A stretch of 64,000 nt of DNA, the filler included, from Collodictyon triciliatum (lineage: Eukaryota), in NCBI GenBank assembly GCA_043381765.1. It is 21 parts of 21 records of this genome, joined end to end, with 100 filler letters (N's around TTAATTAATTAA, not from the genome) between each part and the next. Parts side by side here need not be neighbours in the genome. Positions count along the whole stretch, not along the records: positions 9,171 to 12,126 come from JBHJMP010008022.1; 20 more parts are not named here. One strand, given 5' to 3'. The notes under the pieces were generated by a model. It had not been told where the DNA came from and searched no databases. It was given only the letters and a program-made list of their open reading frames with translations. Every line of letters begins with the position of its first letter. Positions within the stretch are counted from its first letter, which is position 1. Both the position numbers and the translations under genes were made by a program. This document shows, piece after piece, positions 6,274 to 14,441 of the stretch.

Positions 6274-8799
6274 CTTGCTCCACTCTCTGGTCTCCTTCTA
6301 CCTCATGATAAATGAGAGAATGAGCAGCAAATTCTCTTTAGCAGAAATCAGAGAGCTCTCAATAAAAACGGTAATTGAGTTTCGAGGATTGTATTTCTCT
6401 CATTTTCATTTTCGAAAAAAATAATTATTTTGACCCTTTTTTTTATGTAAGTCACACTTACCTCTTTCCCCTTGAAATATTTGTTAAAAGGCTATTGAGA
6501 AATTGGCTTCAGATGAGAAGTCAGATACATTCAGACAACAATGGATTCCGATGTCCAAGAAGTTTATCGAATGTTGGAATATTTCATTCTGTTACGTGAA
6601 CCAAAAGCCCGGCAGACCAGGACAAAAACTTACCGAAATTAATGAAGATGTATGTATGCAGCAGAAGTATTTTTTTTTTTCATCTGTTCCGCATTAATTA
6701 CTCATCGTTCGCGTTTTAATATTGAATAGACAAAGCTGAGCAAAATATTGCCCACAAATTCTCGAGAGTCTCAAGGATTAGTGGAAATAATTGAAATTTT
6801 ATCCGAAGTGCATAATCAAATTATCGAGGCTGGATGGAAAGACAACTTGAATCGGGATGACTATACCCCTATACAGTTGATATCCAAGGAAAATATCGTC
6901 GACTGGGACATGGATAACCCTAAATCAGTGAAGATTGATACATTCCAATAACAATATATCCAAACATTTTTCTCCCGTTCCCTTTCTTTTTCTCTTTTTT
7001 TCTCTTTTTTTCTCTTTTTTTCTCTTTTTTTCTCTTTTTTTCTCTTTTTTTCTCTTTTTTTCTCTTTTTTTCTCTTTTTTTCTCTTTTTCTCTTTTAATT
7101 TGCCTTGGTTTATCGTTTTCTGTGAAATCCAAGGTATTAACTTAAATATTCTTTGATGGTTATGACAGACCGCTTGGATTATAATTGACCGTTGTACTTC
7201 TCGAAATTATGAACCGAGACATGGGAGAGATGTCACATTTAATTGGGAGAAGGTTGGTTTTATAATAGAAATCGAAAATTATAAGTTTTAAAGAACACTC
7301 ATAACAATATTGTATCATAGAAAAATAATATATTAATATCATTCATATGATTATTCCCTGTCATAGATGGAGGGACTTATTTTCCAGAAAGCAATCATGT
7401 CTCGTAACCTGATAAGGGTGCATAAACTAAACACGATTTCGGGCACGGACGAGAATACAAATGGCGGCAAAAATCAAGTTTGTTGAATATTCATTCTAGA
7501 TCTTTTTTTATTCGAATTTATTAAATTATATTTGGGCAACAACCTGTTACACAAAGAAATGCTTTTTTATTTTCCAGTGGTTTTTTTCTTTGTCATTTAC
7601 TAAAGAATGCTGAAACTAAATTCACTAACTTCTGACATTCGAAGCCAACAGCTACTACGGATACAATAAGCTCCTCTTTGCCGTAAGTTTGATTTCCTTC
7701 GGATATTGAGTTTTTTGTTCGGATTGTCTTTTTTTTTTGTTTCTTGGATATTTAACTTTTATTTTTGAAAAAAATAAAGTTATACTTATCTGGATACTCT
7801 CTTTTCATAAAAAAAAAAAAAAAGAGTGTTCAAATTTTCTGACGACATTGCAAGTCTAACGCCTTGGTCGAAAGTTCACAAAAAAGTGGGCTACAAAGTC
7901 GTTGAAACAGGTAAATGGTTTTTTTTTCATATGTATGATTTCCTTGTTTTCCATAAGCTTATCAAATTTCAATAGAAACCTTCGAAAAGATTCTTCGAGA
8001 AAGTAGAGTGGAAAATGGAACTGATTGCTATGTCGTCTACAAGGTTTGTGGATACAAATTTACAGAAACCATTTTTTTTAAATGTGCATTTAATTACTGA
8101 GCTCAATATTAATTTAGTAAAATTAACAATGATAACTTAAATAAAAAAAAACTATTAAAATAAAGGAAACATTGATGTATGCAAATTATATTGCACTCAC
8201 CGGAGGCAGTCCTGAAATGAAGGTGGACAAATATGTCGATGAGGTAAAATAAATGAAATAAAAAAACTATCGACAAATAAAAATAAAAGTCGGTTATAAC
8301 TTGACCATATAAAGTATTACATATCATATACCCAAAATTATCAAATTTCTTCAATCTTTGTTATGCGATTGGAAAACCATCTAGATTCTTAGAAGGAGAA
8401 AACACCATGAGGCTTTTACCCAAATTTCTTTATGTGAGTTGCATAGCTTCTCGGACAATTTGATGAAGAAAGTGCCTGTCGAGCAGCTTATTTCATCAAT
8501 CTACAAGAAAAAGATAAATGTAACATGTCTTTGTTAATCCTTCGAATTTATACTATCGAACTTGCCTGTCTTTTCAAAAAGAAAAATTCAGGTTTAACAT
8601 ATTGCAAACACTGAAAATAACCAGAATGTAATATGCTAATAACAAATGTGAAAAAAATTAGCACACCATGAGTGAGAATATCAGAAAATATCTGAGACCA
8701 ATCGAAGACGCTGAGCTCAAAAGCTTTTTGAACGGACTCTACAATTTCATGAGAGACAGCCTCTTGGAGACGACGTACAGTGACACTGGTTCGCTCAAG
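6274..8799 (+). CDS. RNF213 (mysterin)-like C-terminal domain, partial, about 11 exons
   Basis: Spliced translation ...KFIECWN...LSKILP...LVEIIEILSEVHNQII...IIIDRCTSRNYEPRHGRDVTFNWEKMEGLIFQK...YIALTGGSPEMKVDKYVDEIL...SIYKKKI...SFLNGLYNFM...GSLK parallels the RNF213 C-terminal motifs as I recall them (LHNEIV, LILSNCQY...EFDLEK, TAGGDPNMQL). Confidence 0.65.
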
Positions 8800-8977
8800 G
8801 TTAGCCAAATTACCAACAGCGCCTTATATTTTCTTTCTTTTTGGTGTATTATCTGTATGACATTTTATTATGGTATACGCTTTCTTTATCACACATGCTC
8901 GAATCCACCAAAAACTACCATGATGTAGTTCAAATTGTTTTGTAGTCATAATTGTGCCCGTAATTGAATTATTTTTA

Positions 8978-9070
<93 letters not shown>

Positions 9071-9599
9071 NNNNNNNNNNNNNNNNNNNNNNNNNNNNNN
9101 NNNNNNNNNNNNNNTTAATTAATTAANNNNNNNNNNNNNNNNNNNNNNNNNNNNNNNNNNNNNNNNNNNNCTTTAGTTGTAAGCGGGGTTGGGGCTGGGC
9201 TCTTATATCCTTTCGGACGAATACTTGCTCTGGAGGGGTACCCTCCGACCATCTTGTGCTCCTCGTTGGTTGGGCTCGTCCGCGTGTTACGTGTAAAATG
9301 AGGATTTACAAAGATAGCTTTGGCCAACTTGGCCTAATTAATTTCTTAGATGGGCACGATACCCTCGATAGAAATTTATTTTATCAAAAAATTTCTTTTG
9401 GGAAATCGAGATGGTAAGACGAATCCCTTCCAATTGCTGGCTAAGGACACGATACTTTCCGATATATTGTTCTTGGTTGAAAACCTGGTAGTCGAGCTCT
9501 TGAGAGGGTTTTTCTTCAGGAGCGGTCAGGGTCGCAGATCGAAAGCCTCTCTCTCTCTCTCTCTCTCTCTCTTTGATTAGGTAGTGTTAGCTACTTGAT

Positions 9600-9762
9600 C
9601 GGTTTAAACAACTTTTGAACTTTTCATCATTTCCGTTATTACTAGGAAAGTATACTAAACTTTCGATTGGTAAGCCTGGAGCACTAGTATCCAAAGTCTC
9701 ATCACATTTTTTCACAAAGCTTGTGCAGTGGTGAAGGCTGCCAGGAAAGACCCGACAGCCTA
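9600..9762 (-). ncRNA. Candidate Fanzor omegaRNA scaffold / element right end
   Basis: Begins at the stop codon with hairpin GGCTGTCGGG-TCTTT-CCTGGCAGCC (10 bp, two G-U pairs that form only on the minus strand). Further stems follow: CACAA/TTGTG, ATACTA/TAGTAT, TTTCC/GGAAA. Confidence 0.55.
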
Positions 9763-11654
9763 TTTTTTAAAGCAAGGTGTATGCATATTTTGAAGGATTA
9801 AAAGAACTTTCTTGGGTATATTTTTAGCGCTGTTTAAGTCCTTTGTCAAGAATACACTCTGTTTGCTCTCTAAGCGATTGCATTCTTTACATATGAGACA
9901 TCTATACACCATTCTTTGAATTTCCTTTCAGTTTCATATATTCCAGTTCTTTTTCGCAGTTGTGGCACATCTTGGAGGTTCTAAATTCATTTACACTGAC
10001 TGCTTCAAAACGTTTGGATAGTATTTTTTGTAATCCTCTTCCGATTGTTGGCATAAAATGCTTCATCTGAGATTTTCTGCTCCAGTCTCCATACGCCAGT
10101 ACAACATCCTTGCTAAATGTCATTTCGATTCGGTCCACAAACAAGTGTTCACTTCTTTTTGTACTAACATTCTGTCTCCATCTCGTCTTTCGAAAAGGTA
10201 CTTGTTCATAAAATCTGGAAAATTCTATCTGGTATCTTGATTTCATAGATACATATTATCGAAATTTTTCATAATCGAGCGTGCATGAATTATGTTTATC
10301 AGTTATGTCTCTAAATCGATTAAAGAAACCCTTGATGTCTCAAACTGCTGATTCTCTTCAAAAGTCCTGTGACCAAAAGAAACAGCACTTTGTAAATCTG
10401 TTTTCATGCATATACCTGAATAATTATACTTTTTTTTCTCGCACAAGAGTATTTTGTGTTTTTTAAGAGATTTGCTATCATGTCATCTTTGGTGTGCCGT
10501 GCAACGTAATTTCTTACCTGTCTCATCCATCATGTAAACCATATTAAACTTGCTTGCGTCCACTCCAGCTATTATTTTTTTCGCTAATAAAGATAACTGC
10601 TCTTCCGAAAGTTCATGTATATAAACATATTCTTGGGTCTTTTGATGAAATTGGGATTTTGGATTTGAAATACCTTTCTTTTTAAACAATAATGACACCG
10701 CCAAGCCATCTGTTTGTATCATGTATTTAAAAATGTAGTCTGTTTGATGAAAGACCATCTTCTTAATTGCAAAGAACTTATCCCATAGTATCTCTTTGCA
10801 TTCTGATAAATTCTTCAATAATAATGTCTTTCCAGACAATACTAATACATCTATCAAACATGCAGTATCTTGAGTAATATGACGCGGTATATTGGCAGTT
10901 CTTATAGAAATTGGTTGAAACAGTTTGGTTCAAATGTGCTCATAAATGCGATTCATGTAAATCAGACACGGAGTGTACTTGTTTGGATTGACTTTAACGT
11001 CATATTCGATACCTTCTACAATATCGCCGGGAATGATATGACGCAAATGCGTTGTAGGCCATTCTTTATATTGTTCCAGTATGTCGAGTTTCATGAAGAT
11101 GGCTTTTTTTTTTAGCTTTCACAACTCTACCTTTTTAATAGCTTCCGTAACATTCTTGTCTTTAGGAATTGTTTGAGTTATAAAGCGCAGTAACCTCTTT
11201 ACAAAAAGCTACCTAGTGTTATTATGATAAGCTGTTAACATTTGCTTCGCCAAGTACGATAATACACGAGACAGTCCAACCAACGGAAAGCGTTCTTCTC
11301 GGGACAAAAGGAATCGAAAATCATTGAGATAAAAAGTCATCATATCTTAACTCAAACCTGATTTTTTTTTTAACTTGTGGAGTTATCATGTGAAACTATT
11401 CCGACTGCCTTTAAAGCGTACAAAAAAAAAATTTTTTTTTCATCGATTGTTGGGAGTTGTTGTGATTTCAATATGTGACATCTTGCAAATAGATAAGTGT
11501 CGGTAACCAAATAATGACACAATAAAACCGTATCGTTGATTTTGTCATAGTCATCTGCATTCTTTACAATCGACTCTAGAGATGTTTCTACATTACGATA
11601 GTCTGGTTTTACAGACTTTAGATTCTCAGACTCAAGACATTTTCTTTTCTTCAT
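9760..11654 (-). pseudogene. Fanzor1 (eukaryotic TnpB/OMEGA RNA-guided nuclease), frameshifted with internal stops
   Basis: Joined frames give MKKRK..., LSYLAKQMLTAYHNN, YDVKVNPNKY..LIYMN, KLFQPISIRTANIPRHI, FKYMIQTDGLAVSLLF, RuvC-I IAGVDASK, FYEQVPFRKTRW, VVLAYGDWS, VNEFRTSKMCHNC, YRCLICKEC and RuvC-III TKDLNSAKNI. Stop TAG is at 9760-9762. Confidence 0.88.
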
Positions 11655-12226
11655 CTGAAAGTCTTTATTTTACTTTTTCCTTTAGAAAACTACCGAGTTT
11701 TCAATTTTAATAAAACTTAATTTAATTAGTCAATTTAATAAATAATTTAAAAAACTGCATAATCAATTTATGTAAAATTAAGCATCTACCGAGACTTTCA
11801 AAATGTGCGCATTGTGGCAAACAAACACACCAAGTTTTTTATAAGTGATTTGAGACAAAACGTTGAGAACTGATTCGGCGAGTTCGAAAGGACGGTCGTA
11901 TAGCCATTGCGACTGAAATTCAACATATCGACCCCAAACAACATGATTACCGCCGCAAATGTGGATAGGATTATTTTATTTTATTTTTTGAAATGCGTGT
12001 TTGGTGGCAGGTTTACAGAGTGGGTTCTGTCTGGGTCAAGTCAACGGCTTGTTTACAATTTTTGAATTAATATTATATTAATGAAAATAAAATATAAATT
12101 GATTACAGGAATAGAATGAGATTTTTNNNNNNNNNNNNNNNNNNNNNNNNNNNNNNNNNNNNNNNNNNNNTTAATTAATTAANNNNNNNNNNNNNNNNNN
12201 NNNNNNNNNNNNNNNNNNNNNNNNNN

Positions 12227-12361: not shown

Positions 12362-14441
12362 ATGTTTCTGAGCGCTGCATCGTTTGCTGGTCGTGAAAAT
12401 GCAGTTGATACCAAGGTATCTGCGCCTCCCAAAGAAGCCGAGGAGAAAGTCGAGGAGGCAGGAAGCGACATTGACGTGATACAGGATGAAGACGAATTTG
12501 AGTGCAGCGAAGCCTCTGGCTGGACTGAAGAATCATGGATACAGTCTTTTCTATCCATGGACGGAAACGAGGTTCAATCACTATATTACCTAATTTCTTT
12601 TAATAGCGCATAAAGCTTGACTATTATTCAAATTTTACCTATTATTCTTTTTCTTTGTTCAATAATTTTATGAATAATTTCTTCTATCTTTTGGGGTGCG
12701 ATAAAATGTTCAATTTTTCTTTGAAACCTAATGGTCTTGTTTTAAACTACTTTGGAGTTCTTCACTGATGTATCGGATGATTTTTTGATGGATGACTTCA
12801 ATCTTACTGGGCTCAGTAGTGTTGTCCCGAACTATCGACAAGCTCTGCAGATTTTGCAAGATTCTGATAACGAAGGTGAAATGATTGAAATGTTTAAACA
12901 TCCAAACAAACAAACAAACAAACAAACAAACAAACAAACAAACAAACAAACAAACAAACAAACAAACAAACAAACAAACATCCAAACATCCAAACATCCA
13001 AACATCCAAACATCCAAACATCCAAACATCCAAACATCCAAACATCCAAACATCCAAACATCCAAACATCCAAACATCCGAACATCCAAACAAACATCCA
13101 AACAAACATCCAAACAAACATCCAAACAAACATCCAAACAAACATCCAAACAAACATCCAAACAAACATCCAAACAAACAAACAAACAATACATATATGA
13201 CAGTCAGTATAATTTCAAGGTGTTAATCTGTCGATTGATTTATGTTATACATTTTTCATTTTCATTTTCATTGGTAGTTTCAATCTCAATTTTCACTGAA
13301 GTGAGAAAAACATTTACAGATACTGCCATAACAGAGGATGAACAGTTGTCACTTGATCGTTCATGCATTGAACTATACGGGCTTATTCATGCCCGATTCA
13401 TAATCACTGCGCGAGGATTGGCGGCTATGGTATTAGATCCTTTACTCCTTAAGTTGCTGGAACTTTCTGTATTATTTTTGTAAAAAAAAAACAACTCCAA
13501 AACCATAATTTCGAAAGAAATATAATATACAACTCATCAATTTACAGAATGAAAAGTTTCAATCAGGCCATTTTGGTTGTTGTCCTCGAGTATTTTGTCA
13601 AAACCAATACTTGTTGCCGGTGGGGACAACAGATATTCCAAGGAAAGACACTATAAAGCTCTTTTGTCCTCGATGCGAAGAAATATATAACCCTTCATCC
13701 CGGCGTCATTCGAGTATTTATATATATATNNNNNNNNNNNNNNNNNNNNNNNNNNNNNNNNNNNNNNNNNNNNNNNNNNNNNNNNNNNNNNNNNNNNNNN
13801 NNNNNNNNNNNNNNNNNNNNNNNNNNNNNNNNNNNNNNNNNNNNNNNNNNNNNNNNNNNNNNNNNNNNNNNNNNNNNNNNNNNNNNNNNNNNNNNNNNNN
13901 NNNNNNNNNNNNNNNNNNNNNNNNNNNNNNNNNNNNNNNNNNNNNNNNNNNNNNNNNNNNNNNNNNNNNNNNNNNNNNNNNNNNNNNNNNNNNNNNNNNN
14001 NNNNNNNNNNNNNNNNNNNNNNNNNNNNNNNNNNNNNNNNNNNNNNNNNNNNNNNNNNNNNNNNNNNNNNNNNNNNNNNNNNNNNNNNNNNNNNNNNNNN
14101 NNNNNNNNNNNNNNNNNNNNNNNNNNNNNNNNNNNNNNNNNNNNNNNNNNNNNNNNNNNNNNNNNNNNNNNNNNNNNNNNNNNNNNNNNNNNNNNNNNNN
14201 NNNNNNTTCTAATCTTTCTAAATATTTATTATCTTACCGCAGAGAGCGTTTGATGAAATCATGTGAGCGCACTGACTTCCCGTCTGATGCTAGGTCATCC
14301 CTGAACAATATTGCTATAAATGGGAGCCCAGTAAGCATACCAAATGAAATTGATGCCTCAGACAAAAATCTCAGTCCCTTGCATCAGCTGACGAGTGCAA
14401 TAGAGGGCATCTCCATAACTGACCCACTCGGAAAAAACTAA
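12362..14441 (+). CDS. CSNK2B: Casein kinase II regulatory subunit beta; multi-exon, spans an internal N gap
   Basis: SWIQSFLSMDGNE|FFTDVSDDFLMDDFNLTGL...LYGLIHARFIITARGLAAM|...FGCCPRVFCQNQYLLPVG...KLFCPRCEEIYNP. The exact start is uncertain; last exon ~14243-14441. Confidence 0.93.
12897..13188. repeat. Intronic compound microsatellite (AAAC)n/(CATCCAAA)n
   Basis: Read directly from the sequence; lies inside a CK2 beta intron. Confidence 0.95.

Follow-up and report, generated by a model that had tools for sequence, protein, structure and literature searches.

The window analysed here is a stretch of 64,000 nucleotides (nt) from Collodictyon triciliatum (assembly GCA_043381765.1). On its minus strand, from 11654 to 9712, it carries the remnant of a gene for the nuclease Fanzor1, hereafter the window copy, which lies in the part drawn from JBHJMP010008022.1 (9171–12126). 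Fanzor1 is an RNA-guided DNA nuclease of mobile elements, with known members in protists, fungi and giant viruses. We hold with high confidence that this remnant is a decayed, non-functional Fanzor1 copy in a repeated mobile unit of ~2.4 kilobases (kb) in a eukaryotic, protist-type nuclear genome. The window copy is dead and encodes no nuclease today.

Reading frame and assignment to Fanzor1

Three-frame translation of the minus strand yielded four adjoining frame pieces (11654–11379, 11376–10300, 10297–9914 and 9909–9715). These were read through with X at each break, giving 647 positions, of which the 11 X mark eight stops and three frame joins, and the original prediction that several short minus-strand frames join into one protein was borne out. 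The whole pseudogene (9712–11654, minus strand) runs from ATG 11654–11652 to a terminal TGA at 9714–9712 and is collinear with residues 1–640 of P0157, an intact, intron-less protein of 648 residues from a public assembly (ENA source). The window reading was identical to P0157 at 382 of 632 aligned positions (60.4%), and the collinear part, which begins at the MKKRK start and stops eight residues short of the end of P0157, agreed to within 1–2 residues and was free of insertions at the breaks.

Individual pieces were searched with phmmer against all chains of the PDB, and matches were reported at E≤10 (E≤0.01 for P0157). The 348-residue middle piece matched GtFz1 (5.3e-8), PpFz1 (2.4e-6) and SpuFz1 (1.5e-5), and the 145-residue piece that holds GDW, NEFRTSK and the first CxxC matched the same three Fanzor1 proteins at 3.6e-11, 2.8e-4 and 7.7e-4. 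All three of three matches were Fanzor1 for the middle piece, for the 145-residue piece and for P0157, and no Fanzor2, TnpB or Cas12 chain was returned at these thresholds. Against 1.84 billion representative proteins (HMMER), the middle piece gave 1024 matches at E≤1e-3 and 462 at E≤1e-10, a similarity that, as judged by sequence comparison, is far beyond chance.

A structure model was made with AlphaFold for P0157, not for the window copy, using an alignment of 17 intact relatives (predicted local distance difference test (pLDDT) 79.0; predicted template modelling score (pTM) 0.73). The original prediction had proposed that the frames be repaired and compared by Foldseek; this comparison was run on the P0157 model, and its top seven matches all belonged to the three solved Fanzor1 proteins (E 1.1e-26 to 1.3e-23, template modelling (TM) score 0.60–0.79). 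Cas12 followed at 9.6e-7, Fanzor2 at rank 22 (E 1.5e-4, TM 0.21/0.28) and ISDra2 TnpB at rank 43. The Fanzor1 fold, with its WED/REC/RuvC/TNB arrangement, was thus found in the model of the closest intact relative. By descent the window copy is a Fanzor1, now a pseudogene, and the identity first proposed for it is upheld by both the PDB sequence matches and the structural comparison.

All motifs named in the original prediction were recovered in their order along the minus strand. A basic N-terminal motif, KKRK (11640–11651), is predicted to resemble a nuclear localization signal, and the 17 intact relatives likewise have a basic N-terminus (consensus MKKKKK). TDG, within IQTDG, lies at 10705–10713 and corresponds to T312, D313 and G314, which are invariant in the 17 relatives. 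RuvC-I reads GVDAS (10552–10566; Asp codon 10560–10558) and aligned to IDPNKRD of SpuFz1; D364 is kept, and beside it the invariant P365 and G366 are changed to A and S, respectively. GDW (10082–10090) occupies the canonical RuvC-II place and offers no Glu there; its G521 is invariant in the 17 relatives, and it aligned to GDWS (SpuFz1), GNWS (PpFz1) and GNWG (GtFz1). NEFRTSK (9971–9991) holds the predicted alternative catalytic Glu (codon 9988–9986; E555, invariant in relatives) together with the TS motif. This Glu lies 34 residues past the G of GDW and pairs with the Glu of DEFRTS, EHYTS and DEYKTS in the three solved Fanzor1 proteins. A four-cysteine (C4) zinc ribbon follows at 9889–9967, formed by CHNC (9967–9956) and CLIC (9900–9889), all four Cys being invariant in relatives. 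RuvC-III reads KDLNSAKNI (9817–9843; Asp codon 9840–9838), in which D604 is kept and the invariant R603 is changed to K. The D, E and D and the four Cys all sit on columns invariant in the 17 intact relatives, as the predicted catalytic and zinc-finger layout would have it. The window copy also shows the rearranged RuvC-II layout, in which an inert residue takes the canonical place and the alternative Glu follows downstream.

At RuvC-I, the closest paralogue fragment, P0024, has GVDAG in place of the GVDAS of the window copy and the DPG shared by all 17 intact relatives. Because P0024 reads GVDAG, the Pro-to-Ala change may be older than the window copy and typical of its subfamily; an older change would put in question whether the founder of the subfamily was fully active.

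The family motif given in the available part of Bao and Jurka, 2013 (PMC3627910), D-X(125,275)-[TS][TS]-X-X-C4-X(5,50)-RD, was compared with the read-through. Its first elements fit, with D at read-through position 366, TS at 560–561 (193 residues in between), and the ribbon halves CHNC and CLIC at 564 and 586, respectively.

A remnant of another nuclease of the TnpB family, either Fanzor2 or an IS607 TnpB or a Cas12-like protein, could present much the same motifs. According to the available part of Jiang et al., 2023 (PMC10530073), the relocated Glu with an inert residue at the canonical place occurs in all Fanzors and in the TnpB2 group, is catalytic in Fanzors at a distance of ~45 residues, and the D...E...C4...D layout is likewise common to Fanzor2 and TnpB2. 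The motifs alone consequently do not discriminate, the rearranged RuvC put forward at the outset as a mark of Fanzor1 is too widely shared to serve as one, and the split from Fanzor2 rests on the structure and sequence matches. These point away from the other families, since neither Fanzor2, TnpB nor Cas12 was matched among PDB sequences and the Foldseek values for Fanzor1 (E ~1e-26, TM 0.60–0.79) stand far from those for Fanzor2 (E 1.5e-4, TM 0.21/0.28). The length of ~650 residues, with a long N-terminal REC-type region, is also that of Fanzor1. We attach hardly any credence to an origin from one of these other nucleases.

Lesions and decay of the window copy

Eight in-frame stops (3 TAA, 2 TAG and 3 TGA) and three frameshifts were counted along the minus-strand reading. 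Frameshift 1 (frame 2 to frame 1; 11377–11378) lies beside a run of ten A, where 44 nt stand against 14 codons of P0157. It is followed by a TAA at 11347–11349, aligned to E of the paralogue fragment P0046, a TAG at 11209–11211, aligned to E in all five covering relatives, and a TGA at 11119–11121, aligned to R of P0003. Two further TGA codons aligned to G of P0003 and D of P0182, P0001 and P0157 (10930–10932) and to R of P0024 and P0157 and K of P0001 (10483–10485); P0001 and P0182 are fragments of the subgroup of P0157. A TAA at 10303–10305 aligned to S of P0157 and is followed by frameshift 2 (frame 1 to frame 0; 10298–10299), at which one base is missing, and by a TAA at 10256–10258, aligned to E of P0157. 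At frameshift 3 (9910–9913), which takes the reading from frame 0 into frame 1, there is one extra base. The last lesion is a TAG at 9760–9762, aligned to Q of P0157. The gene had been taken to end at 9760; that codon is a premature stop, past which homology continues for 15 codons to the TGA at 9714–9712.

The five stops of the middle piece are private to the window copy, being sense residues in every covering relative, and the paralogue fragments P0046, P0003 and P0024 (70–75% identical) have E, E, R, G and R at five window stops. The window copy keeps 60 of the 71 columns that do not vary among the 17 intact relatives and has lost 11, and an uninterrupted frame with an intact catalytic neighbourhood was not found in it. 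The frameshifts were also compared with other copies in public contigs by word depth. The extra base behind 10298 was present at 142 of 219.5 in run X3 (8 contigs), 16 of 25.2 in X5, 9.4 of 36.6 in X1 and 7.8 of 119.5 in X2; at frameshift 3, other X3 copies have one base fewer, either at 9911 (5 contigs) or at 9914 (4 contigs), with depths of 71.2 and 63.1 of 211. Because many other copies are without them, frameshifts 2 and 3 are private to a subset of copies that includes the window copy. Given sense codons at the stops and the absence of these frameshifts in other copies, the family spread as an open gene and the window copy decayed afterwards.

The same breaks could in principle belong to an intact gene that merely looks broken, through introns, a variant genetic code, programmed frameshifts or assembly errors. 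Introns are frequent in Fanzor genes (Jiang et al., 2023, PMC10530073, in the part available), one frameshift adjoins the run of ten A, and TGA accounts for 3 of the 8 stops. The breaks are not introns, because no segment is inserted at any of them, in a reading collinear with the intron-less P0157, and because the stops align to sense residues. Recoding is unlikely because stop codons of all three kinds occur in frame, along with three frameshifts, and because host frames of 520, 329, 291 and 284 residues in the window are open under the standard code. Plain sequencing error does not explain the breaks either, frameshift 1 alone being a candidate for it. The loss of 11 of the 71 invariant residues and the sense codons of other copies at the five covered stops likewise count against an intact gene, a reading that is close to refuted and to which we allow next to no probability. 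That this copy is dead had been proposed before the present analysis and stands.

As to whether intact copies persist, which had also been suggested, the family is multi-copy and other copies lack these lesions; the nearest intact protein found is only 60% identical. A word-indexed search of longer proteins (610–2000 residues) gave 25 at E≤1e-20, the best being P0157 (E 6.7e-118, 57% over the middle piece), and a search near the length of the piece (191–609 residues) returned 3 at E≤1e-30, with a highest identity of 59%. Neither length range yielded an intact protein nearer to the window copy than P0157, and the relatives at 70–75% identity are fragments of only 84–139 residues.

Repeat unit, giant-virus relatives and ends

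Public contigs from X3, which is one organism's run, and from three freshwater metagenome runs were aligned on 9200–12100. X3 contributed 489 contigs, of which 78, 132, 139 and 140 fell in the likeness classes >99%, 95–99%, 90–95% and <90%, and a single position was covered by up to 19 different X3 contigs; the metagenome runs contributed 194, 67 and 37. Copies of the unit are numerous, both in the run of that one organism and in the freshwater metagenomes. Six contigs depart from the window sequence at 12093–12098 and continue into three different sequences, which places the 5' end of the unit ~440 nt upstream of the ATG. The intervening 5' non-coding part (11655–12095, minus strand, ~440 nt) is covered by contigs of other copies. 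On the other side, the flank at 9200–9539/9598 is covered by single contigs with 5–6 differences, so that the same or a very close organism was present in those samples; these single-copy contigs start within ~100–200 nt of the 3' end of the gene. Cover by other copies thins below ~9700, and the uncovered stretch proves nothing about the 3' boundary of the unit. The family is multi-copy and the length of its unit is put at ~2.4 kb. Within the window itself no second copy was found, as tblastn of the four pieces returned self-matches and otherwise nothing below E 0.31.

Relatives were then counted in viral and metagenomic contigs. At least 558 of 599 candidate stretches in JGI metagenome contigs and 355 of 565 in IMG/VR encode a relative. 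From these, 160 loci were kept (80 of them viral, L081–L160), 37–47% identical to P0157, and 156 of the 160 have an open frame of at least 450 residues with the motifs. Thirty-five of the 80 viral loci carry GVMAG contig names, which we take to denote giant-virus contigs. Look-alike clusters in the Atlas belong to Pfam DUF8286 (PF26935) and are 92–100% Nucleocytoviricota; the Pfam version scanned reported no PF26935/DUF8286, even for P0157. A tree was built with FastTree only, from 55 chosen rows, and was unrooted (midpoint placement) with several long branches flagged. In it the window copy has P0157 as its sister (support 100), the pair sits on a long stem (0.66), and together they adjoin a clade that includes viral loci (support 87, unstarred). 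The lineage of the window copy and P0157 lies within the DUF8286 Fanzor1 clade, which otherwise consists mainly of Fanzor-only inverted-repeat elements of giant viruses.

These affinities raise the question of whether the remnant arrived with an integrated fragment of a giant virus and did not multiply in the host as a transposon. The place of the closest DNA-level relatives among those compared, in giant-virus contigs, the Nucleocytoviricota composition of the Atlas clusters and the position beside a clade with viral loci in the tree all favour such an origin. Against it, the repeated unit is short, with contigs that leave it at 12093–12098 for different flanks and single-copy flank contigs that begin close to the 3' end of the gene. 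No viral or transposase domain was found in the nine flanking frames tested (at least 54 residues each), two of which encode a host ubiquitin-conjugating enzyme. Many diverged copies occur in one organism's run, and the window copy and P0157 form a long branch of their own. We consider arrival within a viral fragment very unlikely, and retain the reading of the window copy as carried by a repeated mobile unit of a nuclear genome.

The 3' ends of viral elements were compared in 15 viral loci from one well-supported clade, of which one was dropped since its downstream sequence was lacking, leaving 14 (L090, L094, L096, L097, L101, L108, L115, L120, L128, L129, L136, L150, L159 and L091). Conservation continues past the stop for 81–82 nt in 11 of the 14 and for 73–75 nt in the other 3, and ends sharply at an invariant GGTGTAA. 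For this tail RNAalifold predicted 36 pairs, 5 with compensatory changes, one pair being AU in 5 loci, CG in another 5 and UA in the remaining 4. An inverted repeat of that end, 32–44 nt long, stands next to TA at 416–441 nt (693 in one) upstream of the ATG in half of the loci (7 of 14); the other 7 have no left repeat within 700 nt and may be one-ended or rearranged copies. The conserved 3' end and the upstream inverted repeat together identify the viral loci as Fanzor-only inverted-repeat units of ~2.4 kb with a guide-RNA-like 3' tail, and in size and layout these units match the unit of the window.

Several results weigh against the reading of the window copy as a decayed Fanzor1 in a mobile unit. 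Left and right end regions were compared for inverted repeats and gave a best local score of 15, which 321 of 500 shuffles reached. No target-site duplication was shown for the window copy, whose 5' end is placed only near 12094–12098. Rfam gave 0 matches at E≤1 over 8000–12126, and a guide RNA was not shown for the window copy. Frameshift 1 is the one lesion that could be a homopolymer error of sequencing or assembly. Of seven pieces scanned with Pfam, six had no match and one had a sub-threshold match, the zinc ribbon to PF07282 (E 0.0071, 16.9 bits, under the 26.3 cut-off). The last, 65-residue piece, which holds the RuvC-III Asp, gave no Fanzor match in the PDB when searched alone, so that the catalytic assignment of its Asp is indirect; its place is suggested by sequence collinearity with P0157 and P0002, and the Asp of KD was assigned through the invariant D604 column of the 17 relatives, not aligned residue by residue to D606 of SpuFz1. 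The X(5,50)-RD element of the family motif is absent as such, the window copy having KD at a fitting spacing of 15 residues; R603K is read as decay of a dead copy and bars functional membership, not descent from the family. To our knowledge, what Fanzor does for its element has not been established even where the protein is intact.

Asp 606 is the third catalytic residue of SpuFz1 in the available part of Xu et al., 2024 (PMC11423790).

The repeat search of the window copy returned only short pairs at chance level. A 13-nt likeness of the 3' flank (9632–9620) to the viral repeat scored 18, was equalled by 34 of 500 shuffles and was not counted. The single sequence from 9800 to 9621 folded at -42.2 kcal/mol (z -2.12; 6 of 200 shuffles equal). 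Its fold includes one hairpin where the coding region ends (9736–9760, minus strand), the stem being 11 pairs long, and a second hairpin was seen at ~9700–9657 on the minus strand, with a stem of 7 + 3 pairs, a one-base bulge and a small inner hairpin enclosed. The two might be leftovers of a guide-RNA scaffold, as a single-sequence prediction made without comparative support.

Some contigs bear on transcription. Eleven X3 contigs break from the window at 9620 (minus strand) into other letters. These letters resemble what we take to be the reverse complement of the SMART template-switch adaptor. If they are adaptor, X3 was made from cDNA, and position 9620 is the start of a minus-strand RNA, ~90 nt downstream of the remnant; a frame with its ATG at 9251 follows 9620 on that strand. 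The very high depth in bin 9588–9684 is probably adaptor inflation. Upstream of the gene, four contigs, all from X3, skip ~173–174 nt between 11689/11690 and 11864. The skipped part, 11690–11861 on the minus strand, reads GT...AG over 172 nt if 1–2 bridging letters are copy variants, and pieces from the DNA-type runs X1 and X2 are contiguous across it. A spliced transcript with a 172-nt intron in its 5' leader is weakly suggested by this skip, for which a deletion variant between short direct repeats, two in number, would be just as good an explanation.

It is possible, and to our minds rather doubtful, that a host-resident lineage, made up of the window family and P0157, branched from the giant-virus elements, multiplied in a freshwater protist and is still transcribed with a spliced 5' leader. 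If that were true, it would amount to a jump of an RNA-guided nuclease from virus to host (or from host to virus), and live copies and a distinct guide RNA would remain to be found.

The setting of the remnant in the window was recorded as follows. The window is eukaryotic nuclear DNA, and its frames include casein kinase II beta, a WD40 protein, an NHL protein, a cyclin, a RING protein and a ubiquitin-conjugating enzyme. A host hydrolase frame compared with the Atlas matched bacterial and archaeal clusters only. Runs of N recur every ~3050 nt (e.g. 9071–9170 and 12127–12226), each made of a pair of 44 N around the 12-mer TTAATTAATTAA; they split the window into equal pieces of 2956 nt and reflect artificial masking or joining, and gene adjacency across them is not safe to assume. 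The Fanzor remnant and its flanks all lie inside the single piece 9171–12126. A separate gap of 477 N stands at 13730–14206. Just downstream of the remnant are a (GA)n microsatellite (9540–9584) and a long (AAT)n run (8975–9070), and many further low-complexity runs, of poly-A/T and of hexamer repeats within frames, occur across the window.

Proposed activity and known systems

By homology, the ancestor of the window copy was probably an RNA-guided double-strand DNA endonuclease. Its RuvC active site would have been formed by the D of GVD, the relocated E of NEF and the D of KD, with the C4 zinc ribbon beside it, and its basic N-terminus may have served nuclear import. An omegaRNA would have been transcribed from the 3' end of the element, with the guide part reading into flanking DNA, and the nuclease would have cut DNA matching this flank-derived guide. 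In its home element the nuclease is thought to cut sites related to the insertion site of the element, which would favour persistence or spread of the element. After insertion, neutral drift would account for the eight stops, the three frameshifts and the loss of conserved residues.

The window copy is a genuine molecular fossil, and an ordinary one, of a kind already known. Making no nuclease, it matters little in itself; Fanzor1 has been sampled widely, and public contigs already contain hundreds of intact relatives of the clade. It does flag a Fanzor1 sublineage that shares only ~60% identity with its nearest intact relative in public data and 37–47% with the abundant giant-virus members, one more instance of the known movement of Fanzor elements between protists and giant viruses. 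Since intact relatives are available in P0157 and in the open frames of 156 of the 160 loci, tool-building does not require the fossil to be rebuilt.

Among known systems, the solved Fanzor1 proteins are SpuFz1 (8GKH, 9CEU–9CEZ), GtFz1 (9CER–9CET) and PpFz1 (9CF0–9CF3). They have in common with the window copy the order RuvC-I Asp, G-x-W, relocated Glu before TS-x-x-C, C4 ribbon and RuvC-III Asp. They differ in being only ~18–20% identical to the P0157 model in structural alignments, and the window copy is a pseudogene. P0157 itself is intact and keeps the invariant DPG and RD, whereas the window copy has lost P, G and R; the 40% divergence between them marks a different subfamily or species. 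Fanzor2 and IS607 TnpB, represented by ApmFz2 (9B0L), are like the window family RuvC nucleases with a relocated Glu and a zinc ribbon and are omegaRNA-guided. The ApmFz2 chain is shorter (466 residues) and without the long REC-type N-terminal half, and Fanzor2 rides with the serine-recombinase TnpA.

Decayed, multi-copy, non-autonomous Fanzor1 units are described from eukaryotes and giant viruses in the available part of Bao and Jurka, 2013 (PMC3627910). Among them CRe-1, CRe-2 and CRe-3 of Chlamydomonas are, in that text, likewise multi-copy, non-autonomous and truncated or decayed, and their motif fits the window copy save for R to K. As given there, the CRe elements are Helitron2 with introns, whereas the coding region of the window copy is intron-less and no Helitron ends were identified at it. 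The giant-virus elements, unlike the window copy, are intact, with clear terminal inverted repeats by TA (in 7 of the 14 loci compared) and a structured 3' tail. They are like the window unit in belonging to the same protein clade, in the size of the unit, in the absence of an adjacent transposase within it and in a 5' non-coding part of ~430 nt, as against ~440 nt in the window.

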